Of a stretch of DNA of 64,000 bases, positions 23,174-64,000 are shown piece by piece. Location of the stretch: the IMG/VR virus record IMGVR_UViG_3300021387_000129; one strand, written 5' to 3'. This stretch comes from an uncultured virus (IMG/VR IMGVR_UViG_3300021387_000129) (taxonomy: Duplodnaviria; Heunggongvirae; Uroviricota; Caudoviricetes). Each line of letters opens with the position of its first letter. The first letter of the stretch is position 1. The translations under genes were made by a program, and so were the position numbers. Below the pieces are notes generated by a model, which saw only the letters and a list, made by a program, of their open reading frames with translations, did not search any database and was not told the DNA's origin.

Positions 23174-23440
23174 TCATTTGCGCTTGCGTTTTTTCTTCCG
23201 CTTTTTAGCAGGTCCTTCTGGCCAATCGCCTCTTGCAGCTCGCATGGAAGTAACGTACATACCAGCTGCCGGGCCCATCACAGTAGACAAGGCGGCAGAT
23301 CTTAATGCGTATCCGAGTTCCTTCCTGCGTTCTTTCTGCTTCTTAGTAAGGCGCTTTTTACGCATACCCCAGCGCATGCCAAGAACTCCAAAGTGCGCAA
23401 GATATTCTCCACTGCGTTCAACAGCGTAATAAGAGGCCAT
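23174..23440 (-). CDS. Small basic protein with YLAH-FGVLGMRWG leader (putative internal head protein)
   Basis: Start moved to MASYY (GAGGAGG RBS); very K/R-rich. Confidence 0.7.
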   Translation of the reverse strand: MASYYAVERSGEYLAHFGVLGMRWGMRKKRLTKKQKERRKELGYALRSAALSTVMGPAAGMYVTSMRAARGDWPEGPAKKRKKKRKRK

Positions 23441-23455
23441 AGCGCACCTCCTCAA

Positions 23456-24310: not shown

Positions 24311-24323
24311 GTGAGTTCCTCCA

Positions 24324-28704: not shown

Positions 28705-29004
28705 CTAATCCTCTCGGAGGTAGTCCGGAATGCTGTCCAGCTTGGTTCCTTCACGCGTGATGAGACAGTAAACATCGAATCCAAGTTCGTTGTTCATTGA
28801 AATAATCTCAGAATACGTTCTCAGTAAATGCTTTGCTTTCTCATCATCAGTTTCATCAATCGTTGGAAATCCGTAGACGCGCATGCAATATGATTCTGTG
28901 TTGAATCCATAGTCCTGATCGTACTCTTTCCAGTCGTCGTACTGAGTAAATGGATTGAAAGGATTGTCTTTCGTCGTCAACAAAATGTCAGTTGCCTTGA
29001 TCAT
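28705..29004 (-). CDS. Hypothetical acidic protein coupled to the RNAP gene
   Basis: ATGA overlap with the RNAP stop; LTTKDNPFNPFTQYDDW. Confidence 0.7.
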   Translation of the reverse strand: MIKATDILLTTKDNPFNPFTQYDDWKEYDQDYGFNTESYCMRVYGFPTIDETDDEKAKHLLRTYSEIISMNNELGFDVYCLITREGTKLDSIPDYLRED

Positions 29005-31937
29005 GTTGTCCCGATTTGATCCTCCTTTCCAAGCGCACGATATAGCGTTGACACAGAGACGCCAAGGCTGTCAGCAACTTCGGAAGGAGAATAACCGTTG
29101 TCCAAGCGAAGCTTGGCTGTCGCTAATTTGCCTGCAGAAATACCTTTCTTGGTCTTGGGTAACGCACGACGCTTCAGTTTATCCACATCAGTGTTCTTCA
29201 AAATCTCTTCAAGCTTGGCATTAGAAATAGCGCCGGCCTGAATCGCTTCCCATTGACGGTCTGTAATATCGATCTGGTGCTTCTTAGCGCCCACACGATA
29301 TCGAGCTTCTTCCAAACATTGCGCACGAACCTTCTTGATCTTGTCCTTGTCGTAAATAAGCTCCGGATTCTCTTGTTTCTTTAAATTAAAGAATTTAGAT
29401 GCAAGCGACTGAGCCTTACGTTCAAGCGGAGCATTTGCTTTGGCAAGAGCAAGGGCATCGTTGAGCTCTTGGACTTCCTTTAAATAATATTGTTTGGCAG
29501 CGGTGTTCAATTTGTTGGGCTTAATATGCAGAACTTCAAGGCGTGCTTGATTTGCAAGCTGCTTCATCTCAGTTGCATACTCAGCATATACTTTCTCCAT
29601 CTTGGTTCCTGAATTCATACGGGGATCAAATGGATCAAGTTCATAGCCCTTCTGAGATTTAGTTATGCTACCAACCTGCTGATAAATAGGATTGCCATCC
29701 TCATCAAGAGCAGGCTCCTTTATCTTTGCTTTAGATTTAGGATCACGCATAACCTTGCCAGTCTCAGGATCAATTTTATCAACGAGCACTTGCTTCCAAC
29801 GTGTCTGTCCTGTGGTGGTATATAACTTCTCGCCTGTCTGTGGATCAACATAAAATACCCTAGACTTGCCAGTCTCAGGATCAATACGTCTTTGCCCAGC
29901 CTTGCGATGTGGTAAATCATACTCGCCTTTAGACTGTGAAATAAGTGTCGATGCACCGCCTCGTGCTTTGCCTTGCCAACGCTGATATAGCTGAGGAATA
30001 TTATTATCGTATGCTGCTTGACGCCAATCGAGGTCGTGCTTCTCAGCATCAATAACAACCATGCTGTATTTAACAGCACGCGCAATCTCAGGTACAGGAG
30101 CGCCCTTCAAAGTCATGTCAGTAATAAGATTGGAAACCAATCCCATTTGCATCCCCTTTTCCTGTGAAGACATTGGTGGAATATCAGAATTCTTGTCACG
30201 TTTATAACGAACGCGCAATTCATCAGCAAATCCATCGAGCTCTTTCAAAGATGGGAATGTCTTGATCTGACCTTTATCATTTGGAATAACAAGAGCGGTA
30301 TCACCATCAAAATCAGCACCTGACAATTTCTCTGCGACTTTAGGATTAATACCAACAGCATCATTTCTTACGCCATCTTCAGCTTTACCAATAACCCGTT
30401 GTCCTTCACGATATCGATTGTTGACAACAAGCTCAGGAATTTCGAATCGTCCTGCGTGAGGGAAACGAATCAATACAACCTTTTCGCCATCACGAAAATT
30501 AGGTGCATAAATTTCGTTCTCTTTAATTCCCGGTAAAGGAATAAGAAGCTGTGCTGCCTGTCTTGGCATGGCGGCTGCTTTTAAATGAACTGCAGCTGAA
30601 TCACAATTATCAGCAAATGATTCAAGCAAGTTCTTTTTTACTGCAGGATTTGTAATAGATTTGAGTTCTTCAAAATCATCTTTACGCATCCGTGCATCCA
30701 AATTAAGCTGTCGTTTAGCCAAAGGAATTGTCTGTTTAGACAATAACTGAGCAGGAAGGTTTCGCTTCCATTTCTCCCAAGTACCCTGTTCGTTCACCAT
30801 GTTGATCGCGGATAAATGCTGCTTGCCATCCTTGCCAGTGTAGTGAGCCTGAAATAAATGAAGCTCTTTCTCATCATCCTGTTTGATCGAAGCACCAAAT
30901 GGATTATTAGTGATGGGATCGACTTTCATCAATTTAAGACAGGCTTCCTCATTCTTATCAAAGCTCTTAAGCGGCGTGCCTTTCGGTTTGTTTGAGTTGA
31001 CAATGATATCAACGCCATCAGGCATGTTGTCTGAATAAACGGCAACACCTTTGATGAAATGCGTTCCATCAACAGCAATGCGAACCTGAGCGTATTTATT
31101 CTTGCCAAGGTTCAGATCTTCAACACCACGTCTGAGTTCAATAATACCATCCTTTTGAAGCCCGCCTTCTTCAGCATATCGAATCTTAATACGTTTCGAA
31201 TCTACTGAGGTTGGTGTCTCGAGCCGATGCGGATTCTCGTAATCCCGTTCTTCATAATGAAATCCAGGAAAATCAATCTCAGCTCTCTTCTTGGCTTCAT
31301 TGGCTTCTTTCCACATTTCCTTGCTTGTCTTCTTTGGATCAACTTTAATTAACACTTTCATGGTCGTGGGCTTGCCAGTTCCCATTTGAGTCTGTGTTAA
31401 ATAAACAAGTTTGTATCCATCTTGAGTTAATAACTCAACAGCATGAGCAAGCTTCTCTTTGGAAATGTTCATTGCGGTTTCAGCACCGCGACCAACATCA
31501 ATCCATTTCTTGGCAGCTACTTCTTTAACCAGCTCATCAGCAACCTTGCGCGTCGAACTGAGTTTAACCTGATCTCTGTTCTTAAGAACATAGCCAACAG
31601 TTGTGTCCGGAATACCAAGTCGTCTTGAAATGGCGAGCTTTGAATAACCCTTGTCAGCAAGTTTGAAGATTTCGGAATTCCTTCCCTTAACAATGTTCTC
31701 GCTGGCAATATCAATCTTGGCTCTGAGTTGTCCAGTCTTGAGTCCATACTCTCTTGCGATCTCAGTGTTCGTCAGTCCGCGTTTGCGAAGCTTGTTAACA
31801 CCTGCCATGAAATCGAAGTCGCCTTGATATGGGTTCTCGCCTGATCCCCAAGGATACCGTCCTGAATGCCTTGGTGTTCCATAGTGTTGCAAGTCGTTCG
31901 CGTTGTCCTCAATTTGGGATGTGAAGATGCGGCTCAT
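29001..31937 (-). CDS. Single-subunit two-barrel RNA polymerase (YonO / cellular RdRP-like) with N- and C-terminal HTH domains
   Basis: LIRFP (30459-30467) then LSGADFDGD (30300-30320); upstream DGII..AQVR..KGV and downstream MGLVSN..VIDAEK match RdRP/YonO motif order; three HTH-like segments. Confidence 0.85.
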   Translation of the reverse strand: MSRIFTSQIEDNANDLQHYGTPRHSGRYPWGSGENPYQGDFDFMAGVNKLRKRGLTNTEIAREYGLKTGQLRAKIDIASENIVKGRNSEIFKLADKGYSKLAISRRLGIPDTTVGYVLKNRDQVKLSSTRKVADELVKEVAAKKWIDVGRGAETAMNISKEKLAHAVELLTQDGYKLVYLTQTQMGTGKPTTMKVLIKVDPKKTSKEMWKEANEAKKRAEIDFPGFHYEERDYENPHRLETPTSVDSKRIKIRYAEEGGLQKDGIIELRRGVEDLNLGKNKYAQVRIAVDGTHFIKGVAVYSDNMPDGVDIIVNSNKPKGTPLKSFDKNEEACLKLMKVDPITNNPFGASIKQDDEKELHLFQAHYTGKDGKQHLSAINMVNEQGTWEKWKRNLPAQLLSKQTIPLAKRQLNLDARMRKDDFEELKSITNPAVKKNLLESFADNCDSAAVHLKAAAMPRQAAQLLIPLPGIKENEIYAPNFRDGEKVVLIRFPHAGRFEIPELVVNNRYREGQRVIGKAEDGVRNDAVGINPKVAEKLSGADFDGDTALVIPNDKGQIKTFPSLKELDGFADELRVRYKRDKNSDIPPMSSQEKGMQMGLVSNLITDMTLKGAPVPEIARAVKYSMVVIDAEKHDLDWRQAAYDNNIPQLYQRWQGKARGGASTLISQSKGEYDLPHRKAGQRRIDPETGKSRVFYVDPQTGEKLYTTTGQTRWKQVLVDKIDPETGKVMRDPKSKAKIKEPALDEDGNPIYQQVGSITKSQKGYELDPFDPRMNSGTKMEKVYAEYATEMKQLANQARLEVLHIKPNKLNTAAKQYYLKEVQELNDALALAKANAPLERKAQSLASKFFNLKKQENPELIYDKDKIKKVRAQCLEEARYRVGAKKHQIDITDRQWEAIQAGAISNAKLEEILKNTDVDKLKRRALPKTKKGISAGKLATAKLRLDNGYSPSEVADSLGVSVSTLYRALGKEDQIGTT

Positions 31938-32896: not shown

Positions 32897-34060
32897 TTAA
32901 AACCGAAAAAAGTCACTTTCATTGAAGTTCTTCTTCGCTTTGAGTGCCTTTGCAATCGCGAGATCAATCTGCGATCTTGTCATGAGATGATAATAAAAAA
33001 GATCTTTGAACGGAGTGTTCAAACGATCAATACGTCCAGCAGCCTGGATCATCTGTTTGTAAGAATAAGATTGGCTGTAGAAAATCACGGTGTCTGTTTC
33101 TGTGCAATTCCAGCCTTCTGCGCCTGCTGTATATTGTACGACATACGCCCACGATTTCCCTTTCGGAATATCATCATGTTGATGACCATTCCACTCCTTC
33201 ACCACAACTGGTAGTGTTCGGAGAATGTCGAGCTCGTAATTAAAGTTATAGAATATTATTACGCGCGGGTGCTCGCGAAGGATCTCACAAATCTTTTCCT
33301 TCCTGCACAGATCCTCATTCACGATACGCCGCAGCACTCGACACAATCCACCTGCATCCTGCAATGGCTCATTGAGATATGGATCCCATCTGTTTCGAAT
33401 AACTTCCTTACTCTTCACAACATCATATGGAAGATAGATCGTCTCATGATGCTGCTCGGTCTTCTTCTGAAAATTCATCTGCACCAATATATCGCGTCGG
33501 TGCTTTACAAGTCGTCCCTCATCAAAATACTTCTGCACCTTTGGATACTTGCTGAATCGACTCCACACAACATGCTGCATCGTAAAATCAGTTCGGTTGC
33601 GATAAAATCCATTTGCAATAAATACTGGAACATAATCCATCCATGTGTCGCCTGGTGTGGCAGACAATAAGATCCATCGGTTGGCTTTGGCAATCCTGAG
33701 AAATGCTTTCACCCATGCGCCAGATCCGACGACTCGTTGCTCATCAAATATGAAGAACGCTCCGCGTACCATGGCGTACTTGGATATGTTATTCCAGGAG
33801 TCGATGGTTGCCTTCAGATGTTTGAAGCGGTCCAGCTCCTGTTGCCATTCGCCTGTGTCTCTTTTTCGCGCTGTCGTGATAATATACAGATCCTTGGTCT
33901 GCTTGAATTTCAGAGGTATCAGCGAACCTCTCAGTTCTCTCAACACAAAATAAGAGAGCGATGTTATGGACTTGCCGGACCCGACCCCACCACACAGGAT
34001 GGAGCCGGAGCCCAGCTTCAAAACCGCTTCGCTCTGATGAGGAAACAGTTTAATGTCCAT
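32897..34060 (-). CDS. SF2 (SNF2-like) helicase
   Basis: GVGSGKS, FIFDEQ, LSATP, QAAGRIDR. Confidence 0.88.
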   Translation of the reverse strand: MDIKLFPHQSEAVLKLGSGSILCGGVGSGKSITSLSYFVLRELRGSLIPLKFKQTKDLYIITTARKRDTGEWQQELDRFKHLKATIDSWNNISKYAMVRGAFFIFDEQRVVGSGAWVKAFLRIAKANRWILLSATPGDTWMDYVPVFIANGFYRNRTDFTMQHVVWSRFSKYPKVQKYFDEGRLVKHRRDILVQMNFQKKTEQHHETIYLPYDVVKSKEVIRNRWDPYLNEPLQDAGGLCRVLRRIVNEDLCRKEKICEILREHPRVIIFYNFNYELDILRTLPVVVKEWNGHQHDDIPKGKSWAYVVQYTAGAEGWNCTETDTVIFYSQSYSYKQMIQAAGRIDRLNTPFKDLFYYHLMTRSQIDLAIAKALKAKKNFNESDFFRF

Positions 34061-34587
34061 TATGCTTCAACAAGCTGATAGTCTGCATACTTGCCGCCGA
34101 AATCATTCACACTCTCGACGCTTGCCCACATGTTCTTCAGATAACCCTTGGTAGCTCCTTCGAATCCGCGATTGTGCGTGTAGGGATGAATATCCATATC
34201 GATGTTGACGAGATTATCCTGGTCCAGTTTGAAATACTGATCAGGCGTCATCAGCACCATGGATTTCTTGCCCATGAATTCGCTAAGCTTGTAGATCTTC
34301 GGGGGATATGAACTCTGATCATTCACGACGATCTCGGTATAGAACAAACGTTCGCCGTCATCCAGTTCGCGAACCTTAATATTCCATCCACTGCTCTTCA
34401 GCCGATCAGCAAATTCGGGGGACAGGCAAAGATTAAATGTACGCTTGCCGCCAGCAGGATTCAGGTTGGTAGGCTTACCAGCAAAGTTCTTGAAAATGAT
34501 AGAAGCGTTATCAATGCGAATATTTCCATCCGCAAGGAAAGAGAACGTAGAGTTGTTAACAGCCTTAATAGCATCCAGATACTTCAT
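34060..34587 (-). CDS. Putative ssDNA-binding protein
   Basis: Between polymerase and helicase; beta-rich IIFKNFAG..GKRTFNL...KGYLKNM. Confidence 0.5.
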   Translation of the reverse strand: MKYLDAIKAVNNSTFSFLADGNIRIDNASIIFKNFAGKPTNLNPAGGKRTFNLCLSPEFADRLKSSGWNIKVRELDDGERLFYTEIVVNDQSSYPPKIYKLSEFMGKKSMVLMTPDQYFKLDQDNLVNIDMDIHPYTHNRGFEGATKGYLKNMWASVESVNDFGGKYADYQLVEA

Positions 34588-53220: not shown

Positions 53221-53268
53221 TCCTTGGTAAGGATGAGGTCGCCGGTTCGAATCCGGCCATCAGCTCCA
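53221..53268 (+). other. attP: attP core: 3' part of tRNA-Thr(GGT)
   Basis: TC-CTTGGTAA-GGATG AGGTC GCCGG-TTCGAAT-CCGGC CATCAGC TCCA gives anticodon loop, T arm, acceptor 3' strand and CCA, with no 5' half; 45 bp from the integrase stop. Confidence 0.85.
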
Positions 53269-53312: not shown

Positions 53313-54446
53313 TTATCCTGTAGACTCCTCGGAAGATCTCATACTTTGAGAATTGTCCAGTGTTTTGTCCGGTTGAGGGTCATTCATGACGAGTCTGACG
53401 CTCTCAAATAATTCGGTTCTGTACTTCACATAGCGTTTCTCTGTTATGTCGCTCTTGGAATGACCAAGCATGCGTGAAATAACGTCCACAGGAATGCCTG
53501 ATTCACGCCATTCAGTAGCACACGTATCACGAAAATCATGTGCTGTGTATTGCTGCAAGTCAAATTGGCACCTGATCCGGTTAAATTCCCGCTTAGCCTC
53601 TGAATAAGATAGCGGAGTTTCCCGTTTACCCTCATCCAGATAGCTGCTGAGAATAAAACCAGTAGCATACTTCGGCTTTAATGTCTCCCATACGACTTTT
53701 GGCAAGGGAATTTCCCTGTCGCTCGTCTTGGATTTTGGTGGTTTGATCTCTGGCTGATTCCTCGTTGGATGAACAACAGCCCTTTGAATATGCACCCAGC
53801 CCGTCTGAGGATCAATATCTTCCCATTTAAGACCGAGCACTTCTTCAAATCGCAGACCCAAATAACACAGGAGTACAGCCATATTCCGAGTACGACTTAC
53901 AGGCATTTGCGAGATTTGAGCTCTTACTTCTGCCATCTTTTCACGAGGTATAGCCTGATGATGCGTCGTAGCTGCCCCTCCAATTACCAGTTTCTCCGAC
54001 TTCATTGGATTTCGGGAAATATGTCCATCTTCTACAGCTGAATTCAGCGCAGGAGACATGTTATTCTTGATTTTAAGCAGCGTCTCATGGGAATATCCGT
54101 CCTTCTCCAGCTGGTTAAACCACTCCTGCAATCCTGTAGTGGTGATCTGGTCTACAGGAATGCTACCCCACTTGGGAAGAATATGCTTGCTTACGATGTA
54201 CGCTCTTGAACTCTTGGTTAATGACTGCTGTTTAGACTTGTAAACCTTGTTGAACTCCTGTAGATAGCTTCCAAATAAAGGTTCTTTTGGCTTTGGCTTC
54301 TCTATATGGCTGATGATGCCAGGCATGACGGTGCCCTCCTGGAGACACAGTTGCAAATATCCTTCAAGCAGCTCCTTGAGGGTTTTGCCTGTCACCCAGC
54401 ACTCTTTACCACCAATATTCATCTGCTGCTTATAGCGCTTAGGCAT
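53313..54446 (-). CDS. int: Tyrosine integrase
   Basis: Catalytic R (LGLRFEE), K (PKSK), HxxR (HDFR), H (LGH), Y (KRYV); SAM-like core-binding region; start moved to MPKRY (GAAGGAG RBS). Confidence 0.93.
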   Translation of the reverse strand: MPKRYKQQMNIGGKECWVTGKTLKELLEGYLQLCLQEGTVMPGIISHIEKPKPKEPLFGSYLQEFNKVYKSKQQSLTKSSRAYIVSKHILPKWGSIPVDQITTTGLQEWFNQLEKDGYSHETLLKIKNNMSPALNSAVEDGHISRNPMKSEKLVIGGAATTHHQAIPREKMAEVRAQISQMPVSRTRNMAVLLCYLGLRFEEVLGLKWEDIDPQTGWVHIQRAVVHPTRNQPEIKPPKSKTSDREIPLPKVVWETLKPKYATGFILSSYLDEGKRETPLSYSEAKREFNRIRCQFDLQQYTAHDFRDTCATEWRESGIPVDVISRMLGHSKSDITEKRYVKYRTELFESVRLVMNDPQPDKTLDNSQSMRSSEESTG

Positions 54447-54560
54447 GGTTTCTCCTTCTGCGCAAAGCCCTATTCCGTTTACAAGGTTCAGCAATATACC
54501 AAGGACCTGACTTTGAGTATAAAGAACCTCAGACATGAAGTCAACTCCTGTAATTCATGA

Positions 54561-55004: not shown

Positions 55005-55029
55005 ATAATACATGGTAATTTTGATGCGG
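55005..55029 (-). promoter_or_regulatory. Degenerate phage promoter motif
   Basis: CCGCA TCAA AATTA CCATGT ATTAT|GGAGG; lacks the ACA block. Confidence 0.45.
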
Positions 55030-55228
55030 GTGAGGATTTGCACCTCACATAGCTGTTCATCTCAGAGCCATGCTTTACGATCTCCGCAATAAGATCATCA
55101 TAGCACACAGCCTTGCCATAAGCGTCTACTGATGCAACCGGACTCCGCAGACTTAATTGCGCCATCTGTTTCTGTCTGTACGCACCTGGGCTTCTCTCTT
55201 TCTAGCCACATCTATTCCGCCACCGCAT
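55024..55228 (-). ncRNA. Expanded tRNA-Leu-like RNA (~205 nt)
   Basis: ATGCGG/CCGCAT ends; TGGCGGAATAG...GTAGACGC D arm split by 82 nt; GTGAGG-TGCAAAT-CCTCAC T arm. Confidence 0.55.
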
Positions 55229-55229
55229 T

Positions 55230-55243
55230 TAAGGCGTTATTTA
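55230..55243. repeat. TAA-N8-TTA boundary site
   Basis: TAA GGCGTTAT TTA. Confidence 0.55.
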
Positions 55244-55435
55244 AAAAATGGCTTCCGTACAGCACGGACTCAAACCGTGTGCTTCGCCGCTGTTAACGTC
55301 CACGGAAGACGGTCATGAGGCAGGCACCCGCCCCTGTACGGATTCACACTTCCTTTCTGAGTGTTAGCCATAAACGTGTTATTTTGTATAGCTTGAAACA
55401 AAAATCCGGTCAATCATCCTATCCACTGTCTTTCT

Positions 55436-55510
55436 TTATTTTTCTGCATTAAGAATTGCTCCAACAATGGACACTATTAACGCAATAATCGATATGATTA
55501 AAAACATCAT
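55436..55510 (-). CDS. 24-aa hydrophobic peptide (not in ORF track)
   Basis: MMFLIISIIALIVSIVGAILNAEK, 6 nt downstream of the RHH gene. Confidence 0.45.
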   Translation of the reverse strand: MMFLIISIIALIVSIVGAILNAEK

Positions 55511-55516
55511 CCCGTC

Positions 55517-55687
55517 TCACCCCTCTTTGCAACTGTCATTCTTTTTAAGCCATTCCATCACAACCATCCGTACAAGCCCAGAAACCGTCATACCACGTTT
55601 GGCCGCTTTTGCTTTCAGATGATTCAGCACAGCCGGAGAGAAAAAGACATTGATTCGCTCAGAGTTTTCTGGCGATTTAGGGGACAT
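55517..55687 (-). CDS. Ribbon-helix-helix (CopG/Arc-like) regulator, 56 aa (not in ORF track)
   Basis: ERINVFFSPAVLNHLKAKAAKRGMTVSGLVRMVVMEWL; GAGGAGGT RBS. Confidence 0.8.
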   Translation of the reverse strand: MSPKSPENSERINVFFSPAVLNHLKAKAAKRGMTVSGLVRMVVMEWLKKNDSCKEG

Positions 55688-55708
55688 AATACCACCTCCT
55701 CAGATAAT

Positions 55709-55737
55709 ATTGTATCACCCTTTTATCATCATGTAAA
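55709..55737 (-). promoter_or_regulatory. Host sigma70/sigmaA-type promoter of the RHH gene
   Basis: TTTACA-17 bp-TACAAT with TGn extension; TATCAYC direct repeats in the spacer. Confidence 0.7.
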
Positions 55738-55747
55738 GTGTTATTTA
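55734..55747. repeat. TAA-N8-TTA boundary site
   Basis: TAA AGTGTTAT TTA. Confidence 0.6.
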
Positions 55748-55838
55748 AATACCGATCCGTTCCCGACAAGTATCCCGCCAACGAAGCAGCAGATACACAC
55801 CAACGCCCATGCTATTTCTTGCGTCATCTTGCACCTCT

Positions 55839-56267
55839 TCAAATCTGTTGCGCCAAATACTTCATCAGTTCTGCATTACCTTCTTTAATCTTGTCGTTGT
55901 CTCCTAAATTACCATATGTCGACAGCACTAGCAGGAATTTGCATATAGCCACCAATCCAGCATGCAAATTTTCCTGGCCTTTCGCAGCATCTGAAATAAG
56001 CCGTTCATGGTTATCCAGACGTTGCTTATCCCTACCTAAATTCTTTTCGATCTCCTTGAATCGTGGTTCCAGCTTTTCAATGACCTTCTGGCTCACCTGT
56101 TCAGCGAAATCTGGTTTTTGCGCTTCATTACGATCTCTTCTCCGTTGAATAATCGTATGAATGGCGTCATAAACCCTGTATCCAATTAAAAATAACAGTC
56201 CAATGGCAACAACCCCATAAATCGTTGTCCACAGAACATCTGGCGTGAACCCCTCTACCGTAGGCAC
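55839..56267 (-). CDS. Membrane protein with coiled coil (holin-like / lysis accessory)
   Basis: One N-terminal TM, then RFKEIEKNLGRDKQRLDNHE. Confidence 0.65.
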   Translation of the reverse strand: MPTVEGFTPDVLWTTIYGVVAIGLLFLIGYRVYDAIHTIIQRRRDRNEAQKPDFAEQVSQKVIEKLEPRFKEIEKNLGRDKQRLDNHERLISDAAKGQENLHAGLVAICKFLLVLSTYGNLGDNDKIKEGNAELMKYLAQQI

Positions 56268-56286
56268 CCGTCATCACTCCCTCGTG

Positions 56287-56538
56287 TTAAAAATGCGGGA
56301 ACTGATTCATGAGATTCTGAATCTGTTCATTGGAAATATTCCTGGTTTGCTGTAAATACTGCAGGATCTGATTCGGATCTCCCATAATCTCGTTCGGAAT
56401 ATCCGGGAATGCCTGTCTCACGAATTGCTGCGGGTTCCTCATAGCCTGAAATAAGCTGTTCACCTTCTGGATTGGATTCATCGGTCCCTGCTGTGGTCTC
56501 GCGCCTCCCATGAGCATATTATACAGCGGATTAGGCAT
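56287..56538 (-). CDS. Gln/Asn/Pro/Met-rich small protein
   Basis: MPNPLYNML...NPQQFV...DPNQILQYL. Confidence 0.7.
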   Translation of the reverse strand: MPNPLYNMLMGGARPQQGPMNPIQKVNSLFQAMRNPQQFVRQAFPDIPNEIMGDPNQILQYLQQTRNISNEQIQNLMNQFPHF

Positions 56539-56980
56539 TATTCTCAACCCCATTCTTCAGCTTGCGAATCTCTTCCCTAATCCCTTCAATATCTTCTTTG
56601 GTGGCGTAATTCCCATGGCTCATACCATTAGTACCAGAAGCCCCATTCAAAAGCTGCTGATTCTGCTGCTCAGGCATCTCATACTTCAGCCTCTGCAGCG
56701 GATTCGGAATACCCATGGGCCCCCAGCTTTTCAGCCAAATAACCGTGTCCGTGCTGTCCCAAAGCGGGATAGGCTGGTTCGCAGGGAGTCCGGCAGGCAT
56801 CTGGAAAGCCTTGGCACCAACTTCTCCTTCAACCCACTCCATTGGCTTCAGCTGCATAGGCGCGGCACTCTGCTGATAATTGGGAGCAGGCTGCTGAGCA
56901 TAACTTTGTTGGTAAGGATATGCATTCGGCTGATAGGCCGTGGACGGATAGATGTTATACGGGTTGTAGTAATTAGCCAT
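56531..56980 (-). CDS. Tyr/Gln/Pro-rich low-complexity protein with small globular domain
   Basis: YYNPYN..YQQ repeats; WVEGEVGAKAF..LWDS..IWLKS; C-terminal YATKEDIE coiled coil. Confidence 0.75.
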   Translation of the reverse strand: MANYYNPYNIYPSTAYQPNAYPYQQSYAQQPAPNYQQSAAPMQLKPMEWVEGEVGAKAFQMPAGLPANQPIPLWDSTDTVIWLKSWGPMGIPNPLQRLKYEMPEQQNQQLLNGASGTNGMSHGNYATKEDIEGIREEIRKLKNGVENNA

Positions 56981-56994
56981 AGAAATACCTCCTT

Positions 56995-57189
56995 TTAATC
57001 ATTGAGTGGACACCAGAATGGTTTTTCTTTTTCATGATAGTATATGTTTATTAAGTGTACTTCACACGGACAGCCTTCGCATTTGTTCATTTCAGGTTTG
57101 CTCTCCAAGTTTTCAGTCGGTCTCTTGTATAACAATTTACCAGTTTTACTGTATACACTTTCTAAATCCAACAATTCATAATGCGCCAC
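56995..57189 (-). CDS. Small Cys-rich protein
   Basis: CEGCPC...FWCP; AAAGGAG RBS. Confidence 0.55.
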   Translation of the reverse strand: MAHYELLDLESVYSKTGKLLYKRPTENLESKPEMNKCEGCPCEVHLINIYYHEKEKPFWCPLND

Positions 57190-57210
57190 TGACTAACTAT
57201 CTCCTTTTAC

Positions 57211-57387
57211 TTAATCGCACCACGTGTAAATTACGTATTGACATATTTCCCACAGGTTATCGAGGGTAATATTTTCATTTCCTTTCCAATTACAATCATC
57301 ATGCATTCGTTCATTCCACTCTTCTTTTGACATTTCTTTTTCAAGATAGCACAGTCCATTTTCTACCAAATGTTCTAAATTACTCAT
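57211..57387 (-). CDS. 58-aa hypothetical protein (not in ORF track)
   Basis: MSNLEHLVENGLCYLEKE...; GAAAGGAG RBS. Confidence 0.55.
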   Translation of the reverse strand: MSNLEHLVENGLCYLEKEMSKEEWNERMHDDCNWKGNENITLDNLWEICQYVIYTWCD

Positions 57388-57479
57388 CGGCTATATCATC
57401 TCCTTTCTAATAAGTTAAAGAAAAAAGAGAAAGGCGTGCATTAATCCGAATTCTCAGATTTGCCTTTCTCTCCCTCTCT

Positions 57480-57504
57480 ATTTAGAGCGTTGTTTTTACT
57501 GCGA
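57480..57504 (-). promoter_or_regulatory. Phage promoter motif
   Basis: TCGCA GTAA AAACA ACGCTC TAAAT|AGAGA. Confidence 0.75.
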
Positions 57505-57537
57505 GTTTTTAGACTTGTTTAATTAACGATTGTGATT

Positions 57538-57551
57538 TAAAGTGTTATTTA
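57538..57551. repeat. TAA-N8-TTA boundary site
   Basis: TAA AGTGTTAT TTA, identical to 55734-55747. Confidence 0.6.
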
Positions 57552-57686
57552 ATAAAACTTCTTTTTTCGTGTTTTTCCACACAGGTTGCACTTGCACAAA
57601 AACACGCCGACGTGTAAACCAGAATAGTCCCAATAATCATAAATTGGCTTGTCAGTTATCTTATGCCATTTGTGAATACAAAACAT
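57549..57686 (-). CDS. 45-aa Zn-finger-like protein (not in ORF track)
   Basis: MFCIHKW...CKCNLCGK; stop codon is the TAA arm of the 57538-57551 site. Confidence 0.55.
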   Translation of the reverse strand: MFCIHKWHKITDKPIYDYWDYSGLHVGVFLCKCNLCGKTRKKKFY

Positions 57687-57697
57687 TTGTTAATCTC

Positions 57698-57817
57698 CTA
57701 TTTTGGTTTCTTTTCGCAATAGTCCCTAAACGGACACCATGAACAAGCAAACGACCGTGCAGGGCAATCCGTATCGGGACTATCTATCGTAATGGGAGAA
57801 AATCCTTCTCCAATCAT
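57698..57817 (-). CDS. 39-aa Cys-rich peptide (not in ORF track)
   Basis: MIGEGF...CPARSFACSWCPFRDYC; AAGGTGG RBS. Confidence 0.5.
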   Translation of the reverse strand: MIGEGFSPITIDSPDTDCPARSFACSWCPFRDYCEKKPK

Positions 57818-57836
57818 TGCACATCACCACCTTTGT

Positions 57837-57851
57837 TAATGTGTTATTTTA
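57837..57851. repeat. TAA-N8-TTA-like boundary site
   Basis: TAA TGTGTTAT TTTA, overlapping the stop of the 57849-60569 gene. Confidence 0.55.
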
Positions 57852-60569
57852 TCCTTTTTTTAGTTTGTAATAACCAGAACCATAGTTGTTTTTTACAATG
57901 ACTTTGATTTTTGATCCTGCAACGATATCACCTATTGATATGCTCCCGTATTCTTCAATTACTTCGATTATTCTGCCGTTAAACGTATCTGGGACATCGA
58001 TGTATTTATTTACGGACGAATGCGCGTCGACCATCAAATAGATGTCATCGCCGACATAATACCACGCAACGGAAGGCAATTCGTTATCATACGTGATCAG
58101 CGGGCATCTGAATCCAACCATGCTCAAAGTGTCTTCGTCTGTTACGGGTTTGGGGGTTGCGGATGAATAAGAATAGAAAAACGGATGCATTTTGTGTGTT
58201 TCGTATATAAACCCGGCACTGTTGATGACTTTTCTCAGATCGTCAACTCCGTCAGCGTACTTGTTGTTGTACCCTATAACCATCCCGTTTCCCGCTGTGT
58301 TGCTGTTGGTATACTGGTAGTAGCGAATTGGGGGTTTGTTTGCATCGCGCCATGTGCTCGGTGTCAGTTCTTGTCGTGCGCTTGGGATCGCGCCAACGCC
58401 ATCGAAAGTCGTACCGGGTACAGACCAGTAGTTAAACCCACCAGACGTGGATTGCACACCATGCGCAAACTCGAAATCCCCATCTCTGTTAAAGCCGATT
58501 GATTCGTATACCGTGATACTCCCGCGTTCACTACAATGAAGCACCAGATTCATAGTGAAAAAGCTGTCTGCGATGGCTTCGCTGAAATACGATGAGTTCG
58601 TGTTGTTTCCGACATGGTTTTTTAGGTACGTTATCATCGCCGCTGAGGAGATGACATCGTACGAGTTCACGATATCAAAGTACGAGCTTCTGTACACCCC
58701 GTTTTCCGTTATCTCGTTTCCTTTGTCATCAAACACCTTTACGGTCTGGTGGTTGATGGCAGGTGTTATTTGTTGACCACGTTCGTACGAACTAAACGTC
58801 TTTGTAACACCATCCCTCGACATGCTATTTACTTCGATAGCAAGCCAATCAAGACCATTATGTGTGTTTACAGGGAAACCACCCCAAATGACGGTGTCGC
58901 TTACTATGCGGATGATAACAAATTCTTTCCCGTCTATCAGCCATGTTTCGCCGATGTTGCTCTCTGTAAACCCGTGTGCTGATTCGAACGTTAGTTTGTA
59001 GCCATATGCGTTCCCGTGGTTACCACCAACGATTGTTCCGTTCATACGTACACCCGTCATATCGTCTGTGGCAGTTTTGAAGAGCGTTCCGGCTGTTACG
59101 TTGTCAGCACTTGTTTTCGGCAACGTGTAGTAGCTATCGAAGTTAAACACGTTGTCCGTTGTGTTTATAATAAACTTAATGGCTATATCGAGTTCAGAAT
59201 CGAATCTGCTCCTGACATGAAAATCTGTTCCGATTTTGTTTAATATAACATCTCCATTCGGTGTGATTTGCTCTATCCTCTTTTCGAGTTCGCTTATTTT
59301 TTTAGTGTTTGAATTAATCTTTGATTGTAGAGTTGTCTCTCCATAAACCAATATCTCGCTTATAGGTATTCCAGACAGATCATCATGTACTCCGTAGTAC
59401 TCGTCCGATGAGCTATGAACGCTTCTGTTGGTGATATAGAAAACCACATACTCAACCCCGGAGTTATCTTTAATCTCTATTGAAAGGTCTTTATCATTAC
59501 CGGAGAAGTTAACGTAATCTGTTGAACCGCCATGCCAAATGGCATTTGTCAAGCCATATGCTCTATACCCATTCGATGAATTATTTATATTAAAAGCAAA
59601 AAGCGGGTTTTTCGATGCCCCGTAAAGAGCAACATCGCCAATGTAAAGCGTTTCTGTTTTTATGTTTATAGTTCTTCCTAACGCAGACACAGGGATATAT
59701 CCGCTTAGTATACCATTAGCGAACGACACAAACGATCCGTTACTATTCTGTATGATGTAATGATCCACAACGTAATCGCTTACATCTACTGTTCCCATAT
59801 TGAAACTGTTTATATTTTTTATTTTGGCCGTGTTTGCGGCAACATCTGTTTCAAGATGTCCGATTCTGTTTTCTGCGCCTAAAAGCCCTTTTTCTTTTGT
59901 TGCTATAGCCCAATACACTACGTCCTCATGTGTTAAAGCCGGGTGGGCAGAACCGTAGTATGCGTTAAAAGCAATTTTTGCGGCTGTCGGATATGCCGTT
60001 TTTATGCTCGATGATACGACGGTAAGGCTTCGTGAAATAAATTCACCAAGAAATGTTCCAGACTCATTCCAACAAACAACGTTCCATATGGAGTAACCAG
60101 AAAAAGCATTTATAAGTTCATATGTTACATCTTCTTGAATATCTACGATGTCAGTGCAAGCCCAACCATCATCGGACCTAACCTGTCCTGTTGATTTGAG
60201 GTAATATTTGTTTGGTAGAAAATAACCTGTGCCGCCACCATATATATATAGTCCGTCCTTTTTATAAAAAGCGCTCTTTAAGTCACCAATCTCATCCTCA
60301 AAGCTCACTTCATCCCAATGCGCAGCCGTCCAGGATTCAGTTGTTTGAATATCCGTTTTTGCCACGTATGGTTTATCCGCATATAGACAATAAGTTCCAG
60401 CAGTAACAGGGAAAGTCAAATCCTCATATCTTGAGGCAATAATGACAGTATCACCACGATCACCCTTAGCACCTGGCGCTCCAGGATCACCCTGTCTTCC
60501 GGGCGGCCCAACAATCGCAGGAATATCAATCCAATTCCCTTGACTATCCTTGACTCTCAATATATTCAT
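57849..60569 (-). CDS. Receptor-binding / fibre protein with collagen-like N-terminus and large variable passenger
   Basis: MNILRVKDSQGNWIDIPAIVGPPGRQGDPGAPGAKGDRGD resembles the start of the 1-338 ORF; junction at IGDLKSAF. Confidence 0.75.
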   Translation of the reverse strand: MNILRVKDSQGNWIDIPAIVGPPGRQGDPGAPGAKGDRGDTVIIASRYEDLTFPVTAGTYCLYADKPYVAKTDIQTTESWTAAHWDEVSFEDEIGDLKSAFYKKDGLYIYGGGTGYFLPNKYYLKSTGQVRSDDGWACTDIVDIQEDVTYELINAFSGYSIWNVVCWNESGTFLGEFISRSLTVVSSSIKTAYPTAAKIAFNAYYGSAHPALTHEDVVYWAIATKEKGLLGAENRIGHLETDVAANTAKIKNINSFNMGTVDVSDYVVDHYIIQNSNGSFVSFANGILSGYIPVSALGRTINIKTETLYIGDVALYGASKNPLFAFNINNSSNGYRAYGLTNAIWHGGSTDYVNFSGNDKDLSIEIKDNSGVEYVVFYITNRSVHSSSDEYYGVHDDLSGIPISEILVYGETTLQSKINSNTKKISELEKRIEQITPNGDVILNKIGTDFHVRSRFDSELDIAIKFIINTTDNVFNFDSYYTLPKTSADNVTAGTLFKTATDDMTGVRMNGTIVGGNHGNAYGYKLTFESAHGFTESNIGETWLIDGKEFVIIRIVSDTVIWGGFPVNTHNGLDWLAIEVNSMSRDGVTKTFSSYERGQQITPAINHQTVKVFDDKGNEITENGVYRSSYFDIVNSYDVISSAAMITYLKNHVGNNTNSSYFSEAIADSFFTMNLVLHCSERGSITVYESIGFNRDGDFEFAHGVQSTSGGFNYWSVPGTTFDGVGAIPSARQELTPSTWRDANKPPIRYYQYTNSNTAGNGMVIGYNNKYADGVDDLRKVINSAGFIYETHKMHPFFYSYSSATPKPVTDEDTLSMVGFRCPLITYDNELPSVAWYYVGDDIYLMVDAHSSVNKYIDVPDTFNGRIIEVIEEYGSISIGDIVAGSKIKVIVKNNYGSGYYKLKKG

Positions 60570-60940
60570 TTTATCCTCCAAAAGAAGCTGGGAATTTCAG
60601 ATCCTGAATCCCAGCTATCATAATAATCACCATCAATGATTGCCACAGCATGACTTCCTGTTCCAATAATATATACCCCTCTGGGATACATCTTGGTAAA
60701 CAGATCAATCGTCACACATGTTGGGCAGTTATCAGGAAGGAGAAACGGTTCAAATCCCATTTGATAAAGATACTTGCCCCAGACTGCGTCCGCGACAGGA
60801 ATATTGAACTCTTTTCGACCAAGAGCACACAGATCGTCATAAACATCGATCCATCTCCGGTTCAGAGCAATAGTAATAGCACGAATAACACAGTCTGGGA
60901 CTTCTTTGTGAGCAGGGTTCGGGTTACATCTCATCCACAT
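60566..60940 (-). CDS. Small papain-like (Cys-His-Asp) enzyme
   Basis: DCVIRAI...SHAVAIIDGDYYDSWDSG. Confidence 0.6.
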   Translation of the reverse strand: MWMRCNPNPAHKEVPDCVIRAITIALNRRWIDVYDDLCALGRKEFNIPVADAVWGKYLYQMGFEPFLLPDNCPTCVTIDLFTKMYPRGVYIIGTGSHAVAIIDGDYYDSWDSGSEIPSFFWRIK

Positions 60941-61193
60941 GAGCTTCGTCGCTCCATGGTTCTTCGTAGCTCATAGCCCTTTCGCTGTCGCCAATTCCCT
61001 GAGTGGTAGGATCAACCAGCACACCGATCAGACCTAAGAAGGTCAAGATTTGACTGGCAACCTTCATCATGGTGTTTTCAGTCACGATCGGAACCACGTC
61101 AAACAGCTCCAGCATGCTGAATACAAATCCAATGATCAGCGACACGAACATCGTGAGCCAGGTTTTATTTTTGAACCGTACTTTCCAATTCAT
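60924..61193 (-). CDS. Holin (phiLC3-like)
   Basis: MNWKVRFKNKTW, two TM helices, GVLVDPTTQGIGDSERAMSYEEP. Confidence 0.9.
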   Translation of the reverse strand: MNWKVRFKNKTWLTMFVSLIIGFVFSMLELFDVVPIVTENTMMKVASQILTFLGLIGVLVDPTTQGIGDSERAMSYEEPWSDEAHVDEM

Positions 61194-61215
61194 GATATCT
61201 CTCCTTCCAAATCAT

Positions 61216-61247
61216 AAAAATAGGGGCCAGCACTATGCCAGCCCCTT
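61216..61247 (-). terminator. Intrinsic terminator
   Basis: AGGGGCTGGC-ATAGT-GCTGGCCCCT followed by ATTTTT. Confidence 0.7.
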
Positions 61248-61252
61248 AGAAA

Positions 61253-61606
61253 TCACCAAGGCATTTCGGGCGGATACATACGCCTCATGGCTTCAGAATA
61301 TCCCCTGGAATAACCTTCATTGTAGCTGCGGCCACCTTCACGGCTCACATACTGGCCGGTGCTAGGGCTTCGACCGCGGCGCCCGGACATCCCACCATCA
61401 TCACCAGACATGCCCTGGAACTCATACTCGCCTTCGCCCATTTCTTTCTCGATCTGCTCAATCCGCATCTGCTTCTCCAGTGCCATCGTCAGGCACTTGT
61501 ACATTTCAGCATCCGCGGCAGTGAATTCGCTCTTGTTGGCGTATTGGGCATCAAGCTTCTCGAGCTCCTCCTTAGCAACCCGCTTCAGATTTTTCAGTTC
61601 CTTCAT
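61253..61606 (-). CDS. Helical protein with Gly/Arg/Ser/Tyr-rich tail
   Basis: MKELKNLK..EELEK; SGRRGRSPSTGQYVSRE..GYS. Confidence 0.75.
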   Translation of the reverse strand: MKELKNLKRVAKEELEKLDAQYANKSEFTAADAEMYKCLTMALEKQMRIEQIEKEMGEGEYEFQGMSGDDGGMSGRRGRSPSTGQYVSREGGRSYNEGYSRGYSEAMRRMYPPEMPW

Positions 61607-61620
61607 CTCAATGCCCTCCT

Positions 61621-62067
61621 TTACGCAACCCTGTTCACTTTAACGTTCAGGTTTCGAGTGATAATTGGAATATCCGCCGTAGCGTTAACTACTGCGACAT
61701 CCGTGCAACACCCGACCGGAACATCAATTGTGGTGTCACCGCTCACATGCCAGAACTCTTCCACCGCAGCAGGTGTAGCAACAGCAATGGTCAGCGGCCG
61801 AACAAATCCGTTCACACTCAGGGCCAGCTGAATTTCTCCTACGGTCCCATCCGTGTCTACTGCAATGTTTCCACTAAAACTAACGCTGTACTGAGCGCGG
61901 GCATTGCAGCAAGGGTTACGCACAATTCCACGAAGCCGAAGATTAGGCGTCTGGTCATCATGCACGACATTCTGCGGACATTTGGTGCAGGGTCGTACAT
62001 TTTCAAGAATTGCAGCTGCTCCGGGCTGGAGCGTCTGCGCTTGTACATATCCGTATTCTGCTGACAT
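61621..62067 (-). CDS. Cys-containing beta-sandwich protein (BclA C-terminal / C1q-like)
   Basis: YSVSFSGNIAV...IQLALSVNG...VAVVN...NLNV; CxxC and CC pairs; start moved to MSAEY. Confidence 0.55.
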   Translation of the reverse strand: MSAEYGYVQAQTLQPGAAAILENVRPCTKCPQNVVHDDQTPNLRLRGIVRNPCCNARAQYSVSFSGNIAVDTDGTVGEIQLALSVNGFVRPLTIAVATPAAVEEFWHVSGDTTIDVPVGCCTDVAVVNATADIPIITRNLNVKVNRVA

Positions 62068-62162
62068 AACAGCACTTCCTTTCAAAATTGACTTTTAATG
62101 TCAAAGAAGGGGCACGACATCCCCCATGAGATATGGAAATGCGGCCCCTAAATGAATACTAA

Positions 62163-62924
62163 TTACCCAGCGTATCCACCGCAGCCGCCATAGCCGAAGC
62201 CATTAGCGCAGCAATTGGGATTCTGCACTATGTAAGCAGGGCGCGGAACCGGAGCCAGATACTGCTCCAGTGCGGCTGTCTGAGCTTCGTTATTGGCGAT
62301 AATCGCAGCACGATCAGCAGTACGGGCAATGCCGTTGCGAAGGTCGAGGTTCTCAGCACGAACGGCATCAATTGTGTTCTGCATGCCGGCAATACGGTTC
62401 TCGTAATTCTGCTTGATGCCGTCGAGTTCGAGCTGGCACAGCTTATCCATCACAGCCTGGTGATTGGCATTGCAGTTGGCACGGGTGTTTGCCCCTTCCT
62501 GAGCGATGGCAGTCTGCAATCCGGCAGTAGCCAGTCGGTTCTCACAGCAGCAGTTCTGAAATGCGCTCTGCAGTGCAAAGTTCTGGTTCATCTCAGCCAT
62601 CTGACGGCTATTCGCACCGATTTCAGCCTGAGCAAAACCATTGGCGATTGCCTGATTCACTCCCGCGAAGCCGTTGCACTGGGCAGTCGTGAGGTTGTTG
62701 ATGCCATTCATCACAGCATTCTGGTCGAAGCCCCTCTGAATATCCGCGTTCATAAAACCGCCGCCATTATTACCTCCGAATCCTCCGCCAAAGCCGTTGC
62801 CCCAGCCAAGAACCGCCAACAGGATAATGATCCACCAGGCACCGTTTCCTCCAAACATACCATCATTCATTCCACCGTACGCAGGCGCTACGGGCATATA
62901 CATTCCATTGTTTTCACCAGTCAT
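62163..62924 (-). CDS. Gly-rich TM plus coiled-coil protein with CCC motif
   Basis: WWIIILLAVLGWG flanked by GGFGG repeats; long heptad region with QNCCCENR; C-terminal NPNCC..GCGG. Confidence 0.8.
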   Translation of the reverse strand: MTGENNGMYMPVAPAYGGMNDGMFGGNGAWWIIILLAVLGWGNGFGGGFGGNNGGGFMNADIQRGFDQNAVMNGINNLTTAQCNGFAGVNQAIANGFAQAEIGANSRQMAEMNQNFALQSAFQNCCCENRLATAGLQTAIAQEGANTRANCNANHQAVMDKLCQLELDGIKQNYENRIAGMQNTIDAVRAENLDLRNGIARTADRAAIIANNEAQTAALEQYLAPVPRPAYIVQNPNCCANGFGYGGCGGYAG

Positions 62925-63133
62925 ACTATTTTCCTCCTAAAAATATAGCGGTCGTTTGAGTTAATGTAGCGATAAGTTATCTAAAGAAAGTTAGTAGCCC
63001 AATGGAACCACCTCCTTTCAATTTGATAAGGAAACCGTATAAATAACTTTTTCTGTTTTGATCGATCAAGAATAGAAGAAGTTACTTATCAGAAATAAAA
63101 AAGAAGAGAGAGGCACATTCTGTATCCCTCTCT

Positions 63134-63158
63134 ATAATAAGGCATGCTTTTATTGCGA
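63134..63158 (-). promoter_or_regulatory. Phage promoter motif
   Basis: TCGCA ATAA AAGCA TGCCTT ATTAT|AGAGA. Confidence 0.72.
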
Positions 63159-63191
63159 GTTTTTGTAACGATCATTATTTAGTTGAGCAAT

Positions 63192-64000
63192 TTAAGACGC
63201 ATTAGTAACAGGAGATATTTTTTCAGTGAACACGTAGAATGTTTTTTCTCCAATCATCAATGTGATTGTTATTTTTACAAAATTATCATATTCGGATGGT
63301 GCGATTGTTATCTTATTATCTATCGCACCATATAAACTATATCCGGCATTAACCAAATTATTGCTTAAAGTTATTCGGAACATATCATAGTCGCTGTTTG
63401 TTCGTCTTCGATGCACATACAGTGTCATCGGGCTGAAGGTATTGGTTCTGGATTTATTTATGTCTCTTAAAGTTATGGTTAATCCATTTCCATTTGAATA
63501 CCCGAGAGCATCGACCGAAAAGCTTCGTGGGAATAACTCATCAACGGTTTGATTAAAATTTGTCGAAGGATATCCTATTGTTATTCCATTATTTTTTTTC
63601 TGAGACAAAAATGAAGGACAAACCAACGTCTGATATTCATAATATGTAGATGGAAGCATTTGATGATTGTCCACTATCCAATTCCCTTGCATGAAAGGAT
63701 CTCTACCAGACCCAATAAATGGATTAAAAACATATGTCCTTGCATTGCTATTTGGAGAAATGCTATAGATTCTATCATAAGCATTATTAAAGTAATTTGT
63801 AAATCCGTCTCCTATTGCTTCGAAATAGGTATGAAGTATATTCAGCGCATAGCAACCCGTTTTCATAACTAATGTATCATATGTCGATGCATAATTTATT
63901 ATGGTACCGCCATACGTTAACCCTAATCTAAATGATAGCGGGCCAGATTGTGTGGATAATTGATTTATTAAAAATATTCCTTCACTACGAGAAGATACAA
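63192..64000 (-). CDS. 3' part of an AT-rich tailspike-like gene (open to the right edge)
   Basis: The frame of ORF 63192-63866 stays open for 44 more codons to base 64000; N/I/S/T/Y-rich. Confidence 0.7.
   Translation of the reverse strand, partial: VSSRSEGIFLINQLSTQSGPLSFRLGLTYGGTIINYASTYDTLVMKTGCYALNILHTYFEAIGDGFTNYFNNAYDRIYSISPNSNARTYVFNPFIGSGRDPFMQGNWIVDNHQMLPSTYYEYQTLVCPSFLSQKKNNGITIGYPSTNFNQTVDELFPRSFSVDALGYSNGNGLTITLRDINKSRTNTFSPMTLYVHRRRTNSDYDMFRITLSNNLVNAGYSLYGAIDNKITIAPSEYDNFVKITITLMIGEKTFYVFTEKISPVTNAS

Follow-up and report, generated by a model that had tools for sequence, protein, structure and literature searches.

A 64,000-nucleotide stretch of DNA from an uncultured virus assigned to the Caudoviricetes (IMG/VR record IMGVR_UViG_3300021387_000129; hereafter the window) represents most of the genome of a temperate gut siphophage. 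Its genes, on the minus strand, include those for a terminase, a portal, a tape measure, a large primase-polymerase, an RNA-polymerase-like protein (PHROG 4291), a holin and a tyrosine integrase. Gene absences reported here apply to these 64 kb; genomes of relatives are 63–71 kb long, and a recombinase gene may lie beyond the window edges. We studied the accessory stretch from a tail-type gene at the window edge to the integrase. It encodes a putative receptor-binding protein (RBP) composed of an anchor and a passenger, two Cys-rich mini open reading frames (ORFs), a ribbon-helix-helix (RHH) protein and RNA-like segments, and short palindromic sites lie within the RBP gene and at the borders of these units (Table 1). 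To judge from the comparisons below, the sites are very probably points of exchange, as the initial annotation of this DNA had supposed when it described them as minimal recombination sites that stack cassettes in tandem and swap RBP passengers in frame.

All six motifs listed in that annotation are present on the minus strand, and the stop codons said to overlap sites are found in the ORF list. The motifs had been read as TAA-N8-TTA. The sites are real, but the bare pattern is only about 2-fold enriched in the window (26 occurrences versus 14.3 in shuffles), and the core register is TTAAA-N6-TTTAA with weak outer arms, TGAY on the left and RTCA on the right. The pattern TAAATAACRCHTTA, picked after the data had been seen, matches the window four times versus 0.05 times in shuffles. 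A relaxed scan recovers seven sites on the minus (coding) strand within 55201–60300 (0.14 in shuffles); these span 55229–60281 and include two, at 57705 and 55386, that the annotation had missed. Elsewhere the scan gives one weak match, and on the plus strand of the window it gives no site. The training set of a weight matrix comprised 52 sites in loci retrieved by means of the recombinase described below, although a few of these loci had first been reached by site search. It ranks the sites at 57552, 55748, 55244 and 60281 highest on the minus strand and that at 57851 sixth, and the sole comparable score on the plus strand is the 57552 site read backwards. Among 93 gene-end sites, the right outer arm is RTCA-like at 43 (most commonly ATCA) and the left outer arm TGAY-like at 31, with 5–14 in controls for either arm, which suggests a full site of about 9-6-9. 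Conservation around the sites covers at most ~24 bp, with no conservation of outer 11-bp arms. The second site that had been placed directly against the one at 57552, TTAA-ATCACAAT-CGTTA, turns out to be the right outer arm (ATCA) of the latter and is outside the top matrix scores. In some other loci, overlapping sites are stacked with a 12-bp period (L049:279-307, L026:3989-4017, L162 and L108), the right arm of one being the left arm of the next. These are possibly scars of off-register or minimal-cassette events.

Alignment of relatives places the breakpoints of homology within the sites. The window was compared with related viral loci and with contigs of four runs (X1, X2, X3 and X5, of which X1 may be the window's own source); missing contig coverage of the passenger in X2, X3 and X5 is given no weight. 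The window's fibre gene matches locus L001 (89.7% over 1134 nt) as far as 60267 and L002 as far as 60268, both within the in-frame GAGCGC site, and the passengers beyond are unrelated to that of the window. X2 record 12 aligns from 60271 and has 1221 unlike letters beyond. At the next sites, the alignment stops at 57849 in X5 record 28 and at 57839 in X1 record 8, and X2 record 11 and X3 record 19 start at 57552 and 57553, respectively, with unlike sequence beyond in both. A metagenome scan with the anchor returned only L271 and L272, duplicates of L001 and L002, and the window relatives L267–L270 contain no convincing site in the stretches examined. A promoter-terminator block that lies behind the second fibre locus of the window (57397–57527) is found behind the first fibre locus in L001 (2927–3056).

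Units as small as a single mini-ORF appear to move with site-bounded ends. In X5 record 28, the segment 57699–57849 with the 39-aa cassette is joined to 63164, ahead of a promoter-like block, through a canonical TAACAC-TTTAA site; X2 record 15 also breaks at 63164. The site proposed at 63166–63182 is decayed in the window and falls outside the top scores, but the canonical site of this relative occupies the same place. The annotation had treated the two Cys-rich mini-ORFs as one unit of ~290 bp. Both ORFs are there, but they belong to two cassettes divided by the missed site at 57705–57690. The 45-aa cassette forms a separate, deeper contig in X1 (57554–57689) and recurs at 81–88% identity in three of four pattern matches (L325, L326 and L328, viral contigs of 165, 95 and 4 kb), in alignments limited to 57699/57702 through 57548/57549 and with flanking sites that are partly decayed. 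Similarly, the unit described as an RHH gene bracketed by sites does encode an RHH protein, but it comprises an RHH cassette and a separate RNA-like cassette, split at 55386–55371, and X1 record 4 covers just 55248–55372. Homology to L116 (75%) starts at 55739, within the site at 55733–55748; close relatives read through this site, and no exchange is shown there among them. A 212-nt indel away from these sites (56989–57200, containing a 64-aa ORF) is missing in relatives of X2 and X5, and its joint is an 8–9-nt microhomology resembling a ribosome-binding site (RBS) with no TTAAA site.

Sites of the same kind occur in many other phages. A 17-mer site scan returned 84 stretches, about half of them AT-rich and chance-like, and 36 of 85 loci, those with a GC content of at least 41%, were kept. 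Most of these carry a site where a long tail-region gene ends or within mini-gene arrays, and L064 has about eight near-canonical sites in one array. A scan for in-frame sites gave 35 loci, 24 of which have a passenger of at least 100 aa and 600 nt beyond the stop. In three phage pairs with identities of 88–99.8%, unrelated fibre passengers are bounded by an in-frame GAGCGC site on one side and, at the gene end, by a TAACAC or GGACA[AC] site. L024 and L044 are 99.8% identical over 1843 nt up to the in-frame site and match again over 33 nt at the TAACAC site; L058 and L068 are 95% identical up to the in-frame site and 88% after the second; and the corresponding values for L297 and L322 are 96.8% and 95.7%. 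A second site near the stop is present in 18 of the 24 genes with an in-frame site versus 2 of 97 control stops. At identities of at least 88%, 18 of 57 internal alignment ends touch a site, seven of them in both partners, where ~0.5–1 would be expected, and all 12 anchor pairs of at least 50% identity have unrelated passengers. The breakpoints thus lie in the sites rather than scattered away from them, and the frequency and position of the sites exceed those in shuffles and at control stops, which supports the annotation's proposal of stacked cassettes and in-frame passenger swaps at the level of comparative genomics. What these comparisons indicate is a real and widespread cassette system.

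The in-frame site is constrained as DNA. Motifs of the form xLKSA, defined by peptide, use the codons TTA-AAG-AGY in 14 of 14 cases, although TTA accounts for 7% of Leu codons, which excludes a constraint on the peptide only. The spacers fall into classes by position: GAGCGC-like spacers are in frame in 39 of 45 cases, and gene ends hold the TAACAC-like (56/72), GGACAC-like (19/24) and TAGGAG-like (14/17) spacers. No frame among the 45 GAGCGC-class sites represents a stored orphan passenger. By hand count, the spacer differs at 8 of 13 junctions with a shared upstream unit and at one of seven with a shared downstream unit. The spacer thus accompanies the downstream unit, and exchange does not require the spacers to be fully homologous.

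The passengers are mostly enzyme domains of 300–900 aa. Pfam searches of 43 genes with an in-frame site found GDSL esterases (9), metallophosphoesterases (6), pectate-lyase-like domains (3), GDPD (2) and peptidase M14 (2), and nothing in 17. The passenger of the window has no match in Pfam, PHROGs, PDB sequences or IMG/VR, and none among proteins of 973–2775 aa, a range outside the relevant lengths; a search of the Atlas gave a sub-threshold lead only. It has 398 relatives, and xLKSA is present in 11 of the best 149; the anchors of these 11 and of the window protein fall into eight groups. The window anchor had been called collagen-like, but it has only a short GXY run and no Pfam match. The C-terminal 483 aa of the passenger are modelled as a beta-supersandwich (pLDDT 90), for which the best structural match is a PL26 rhamnogalacturonan lyase (Z 17.7, rmsd 3.2, 246 aligned), and viral tail proteins are among its BFVD matches. 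A receptor-binding or wall-degrading role is likely, given this predicted glycan-enzyme-type fold.

A candidate enzyme is encoded beside sites in L024, L026, L312, L316 and L321. The recombinases next to sites in L024, L026 and L091 are arm-less proteins of 327–347 aa; the candidate is closest to XerA profiles and scores below every cut-off (XerC, XerD and XerA). In 80 viral loci fetched with this recombinase alone, TAAA-N6-TTTA occurs 60 times (other gaps 11–30, shuffles 15.7); 79 genome loci fetched in the same way contain it 138 times (other gaps 30–57, shuffles 39.3). The enrichment is confined to the gap of 6. The annotation's Xer-type assignment holds at the family level, but the TAA and TTA are 8 bp apart, and near the candidate TAA-N8-TTA is enriched and TAA-N6-TTA is not. 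In a 73-member subclade, genomic copies of which are mostly in Clostridia by record titles, a site with a window-type spacer lies in the upstream 3.6 kb at 28 of 51 loci versus 3 of 46 downstream, and across a FastTree phylogeny spacer types follow recombinase subclades. The phage recombinases share 35–40% identity with the CP020859 clade-2 invertase, to whose clade they are sister; chromosomal members of the latter are found at hsdS loci, where sites with identical spacers face both ways. Huang et al. (PMC7672463) place two plasmid invertases, which match the hsdS sister clade at 58–63%, in clade 2 (the TvrR clade), and Table S12 of the same work lists TAAA-N6-TTTA repeats for several invertons without clade labels. 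Kwun et al. (PMC6265443) demonstrated excision and reintegration of circles by TvrR at direct repeats. In the window relative L265, a 23-aa remnant of the recombinase C-terminus (E 2.5e-5) lies just behind the site. At L202:4661-10938, a recombinase of a neighbouring subclade accompanies CACGAG sites that face either way and lie among tail-fibre-like ORFs. The arrangement looks like an inversion shufflon with the same site design.

Table 1. Sites, cassettes and neighbouring features of the accessory region (coordinates on the 64-kb window)
Feature	Position	Strand	Evidence
In-frame site TTAAA-GAGCGC-TTTTT (L-K-S-A-F) at the anchor/passenger junction	60266..60281	-	homology breaks at 60267/60268/60271; fixed codons
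Putative receptor-binding protein, 906 aa: anchor ~100 aa (60282-60569), passenger ~805 aa	57849..60569	-	ORF, ATG start
Gene-end site TAAAA-TAACAC-ATTAA; first TAA is the RBP stop	57836..57851	-	matrix, relaxed scan; contig ends 57849, 57839
Mini-cassette 1, Cys-rich 39-aa ORF (57698-57817)	57698..57846	-	relocation in X5 record 28
Site CAAAA-TAGGAG-ATTAA; spacer doubles as ORF 39 stop and ORF 45 RBS	57690..57705	-	relaxed scan; breakpoints 57699-57702
Mini-cassette 2, Cys-rich 45-aa ORF (57549-57686)	57549..57700	-	recurs in other viral contigs
Canonical site TTAAA-TAACAC-TTTAA with right outer arm ATCA	57533..57552	-	top matrix score; contig ends
Site TTAAA-TAACAC-TTTAC ahead of RHH cassette	55733..55748	-	matrix, relaxed scan
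Ribbon-helix-helix protein, 56 aa	55517..55687	-	Pfam RHH_5, E 3e-6; homologs in L116, L153
Site CAAAA-TAACAC-GTTTA	55371..55386	-	relaxed scan; end of X1 record 4
RNA-like cassette, 125 nt, ORF-free	55245..55370	-	bounded piece in X1 record 4; folding z -1.76 (weak)
Site TTAAA-TAACGC-CTTAA	55229..55244	-	matrix, relaxed scan; loose contig ends at 55244 (X2, X5)
tRNA-like shell (acceptor-, D-, T-arm-like ends) with long insert, directly behind site	55024..55228	-	similar shells elsewhere
Decayed site behind second tail-type gene (63192-64000, 5' end beyond window)	63166..63182	-	missed by relaxed scan; contigs break at 63164
Phage integrase	53313..54536	-	Pfam Phage_int_SAM_3 and Phage_int_M
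Probable attP core, tRNA 3'-half-like stretch beside the integrase end	~53222-53268	+	

Several other features of the region concern RNA and transcription. The 125-nt RNA-like cassette has no Rfam match, and the tRNA-like shell is recognised by neither ARAGORN nor Rfam (folding z -0.47). Shells with conserved ends and unrelated inserts of 60–160 nt occur in seven other loci (L029, L035, L049, L061, L064, L105 and L308), also without recognition by ARAGORN or Rfam; they are directly behind a TAACAC site in L035 and L061 and nearly so in L029 and L064. A match resembling a group I intron (L035:6890-7291) is under the Rfam gathering score. The tRNA-3'-half-like stretch at the attP core is presumably tRNA-Thr. 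A promoter-like motif, TCGCA-R-T...AAACA, is found 11 times in the window (minus-strand positions 63158, 57504, 53131, 52363, 52119, 51027, 49588, 48679, 48485, 45739 and 32892), always on the coding strand and mostly ahead of an RBS, with two further weak matches within genes; it probably serves as promoter for the RNA polymerase that the phage itself encodes (29001–31937). The terminase is flanked by several genes with DUF7211-type HYG/HFG-GMKWG repeats (23174–24361 and 26069–27094).

We hypothesize that sites of 16–24 bp (TGAY-TTAAA-N6-TTTAA-RTCA) are the cores on which an arm-less Xer-like tyrosine recombinase of ~330 aa, sister to the TvrR-clade hsdS invertases, would catalyse recombination. 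As all sites point in the same direction, excision, insertion and exchange would be expected rather than inversion. A cassette would consist of a spacer, a right arm, an RBS with its ORF (or an RNA) and a left arm, with strand exchange at or just within the left spacer edge. The role of a site would depend on its spacer class, GAGCGC in frame in the fibre gene (DLKSAL) and TAACAC, GGACAC and TAGGAG at gene ends. Two phage genomes would trade passengers through a pair of crossovers, one per site class, and such replacement may alter host range; a double crossover is preferred over integration followed by excision because no stored orphan passengers were found. Mini-cassettes would be gained and lost at gene-end sites, probably as circles, and the enzyme may be borrowed from a co-infecting phage or a resident prophage.

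Several observations weigh against this explanation. Many of the compared loci were picked for carrying a site, many left arms are degenerate, and some of the 57 alignment ends are one event counted twice. L058 and L068 diverge ~20 nt ahead of the left arm, and the right-site junction of L297/L322 is not compatible with a left-edge crossover. The lone backward joint (63164 to 57699 in X5) is known from contigs and fits a relocated cassette or a circle equally. Among the recombinase subclade loci, an upstream site is not recognisable at 23 of 51, two or more are present at just 13 of 51, and the tree has one distant outgroup and leaves out TvrR itself. The window contains no homolog of the candidate, which is present in 2 of 19 near-complete site-bearing records and in none of five with terminal repeats. 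With no enzyme in the window, it would have to act in trans, unless the sites are relics in a lineage that lost its recombinase and now inherits site-bounded modules by homologous recombination in the flanks. The remnant in L265, the decayed site at 63166 and three window sites with poor left arms would fit such relics, as would the lack of the enzyme in 17 of the 19 near-complete records. However, L058 and L068, rated 100% complete and lacking any tyrosine recombinase, show a clean passenger swap, contigs of X2 (from the same sample as X1) that are 95–97% like the window break at 60271 and 57552, and the fixed rare codons point to continuing selection; each junction would, moreover, still require an earlier site-specific event. 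Recent-looking swaps in recombinase-less genomes, together with the fixed codons, favour service in trans, and we regard relic sites as unlikely.

Alternatively, short conserved linkers could serve as microhomology for a phage annealing protein with no site-specific recombinase involved. The window has a PHROG single strand annealing protein (34060–34587), and the indel at 56989–57200 shows a joint of this kind away from the sites. The palindromic arms at a fixed 6-bp gap, the crossovers between unlike spacers with just 2–3 common letters, the enrichment next to one recombinase family and the hsdS invertible segments bounded by the same site shape make this reading less likely than relics. Host XerC/XerD or the phage's own integrase might be suspected because the TAA/TTA arms are inverted, only 0.7 kb separates the integrase gene from the last site and the window has no second tyrosine recombinase, but the TAA and TTA are 8 bp apart, the conserved sequence covers at most ~24 bp and lacks dif-like 11-bp arms, and any tyrosine recombinase is missing from 8 of 12 near-complete records that carry sites. 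The window integrase, rejected as the cassette enzyme, is of the arm-binding type, has its own tRNA-like core and is 19% identical to the candidate; involvement of either enzyme is very improbable. Least credible, and largely refuted by the location of the breakpoints, is the idea that the motif binds a regulator or reflects a coiled-coil constraint on the peptide and only coincides with module borders. The sites are palindromic, those at 57552 and 63166 lie 30–50 nt and ~8 nt, respectively, ahead of the repeated promoter-like motif, and an RHH gene is nearby; however, the 14 fixed codon sets rule out a peptide-only constraint, in-frame sites deep in coding sequence are exact breakpoints, and cassettes down to one mini-ORF move with site-bounded ends. 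We consider it probable that the candidate family is the enzyme at these sites, acting here in trans, and the cassette-exchange explanation as a whole is likewise the likely one.

Clean swaps of RBP domains between unrelated phages are an old question and have mostly been ascribed to recombination, illegitimate or homologous, that occurs rarely. With a defined site of 16–24 bp as the junction and a named candidate enzyme, the question becomes accessible to a simple assay. If the explanation is correct, restriction-specificity switching by TvrR-clade invertases and switching of phage host recognition would share one recombinase lineage and one site design, the small-gene arrays of gut phages would be explained, and a compact recombinase with natural heterospecific sites would be available for cassette exchange. 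More tentatively, and at somewhat less than even odds, unrelated gut phages with genomes from 15 kb to >100 kb may have one socket in common and take receptor-binding enzyme domains, mini-proteins and tRNA-like RNAs from a shared stock, as a distributed phage 'integron' in which a minority of phages provide the recombinase for common use and two heterospecific spacers allow natural recombinase-mediated cassette exchange between genomes. Searches of the literature, with subscription papers, figures and bioRxiv supplements outside their coverage, found no account of this phage system, and those for the literal site and DLKSAL returned TyrR-box papers only; PMC5903667 and PMC9881135 contributed nothing specific. 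What the window contributes is a carrier that lacks the recombinase, three clean swaps between paired sites, the rule for spacer classes and the tie to TvrR-clade invertases.

The system works like integrons, tvr and Rin and fails a defining feature of each. Integrons hold tandem gene cassettes in one orientation, with crossover near one edge and little homology, and include integrase-less arrays. The phage cassettes are also tandem, same-strand gene cassettes found at different loci (for example, the array of L064). Unlike integrons, they have no IntI (48–72 bits against TIGR02249, cut-off 265) and no attC-like hairpin: among the 60 of 89 gene-end sites that were folded with their upstream flank, z is below -2 in four and averages -0.35, and the sites are palindromes of 16–24 bp. 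The dif site measures 28 bp, with 11-bp arms and TAA and TTA 6 bp apart, and pdif modules use an enzyme encoded elsewhere. Short two-arm sites with a 6-bp centre that flank mobile modules, and an enzyme encoded elsewhere, are shared with XerCD/dif and pdif, whereas the inner arms AAA/TTT, the lack of 28-bp conservation and an enzyme below the XerC, XerD and XerA cut-offs are not.

TvrR and the clade-2 hsdS invertases are related enzymes, although the phage recombinases are a sister clade at 35–40% identity in a tree without TvrR. The TAAA-N6-TTTA core is common to the phage sites and to the hsdS loci and inverton repeats of the PMC7672463 table, and the spacers differ. At tvr, TvrR shuffles segments at direct repeats through circles (PMC6265443). 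Unlike at tvr and hsdS, the cargo here consists of fibre domains, mini-ORFs and RNAs in a phage tail and accessory region, two spacer classes have their own roles, exchange occurs between genomes, and the enzyme is mostly absent from the carrier. The Rin shufflon of Bifidobacterium prophages has an arm-less XerD-like recombinase beside a receptor-binding gene, and its authors propose a second locus served in trans (PMC6109161). As in Rin, a site lies within the RBP gene with a same-direction site at the 3' end (60281 and 57851; 18/24 in other phages), and a constant N-terminus precedes a variable C-terminus. Rin inverts silent stored tips at asymmetric 11-bp rix repeats next to its recombinase gene. 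The phage system, by contrast, has no inverted site in the window, no stored passenger among 45 GAGCGC-class sites and a palindromic consensus; its recombinase is not next to the RBP gene in the window and lies beside sites in the five loci named above, its passengers are mostly 300–900-aa enzyme domains, and its gene-end sites also gather mini-cassettes.

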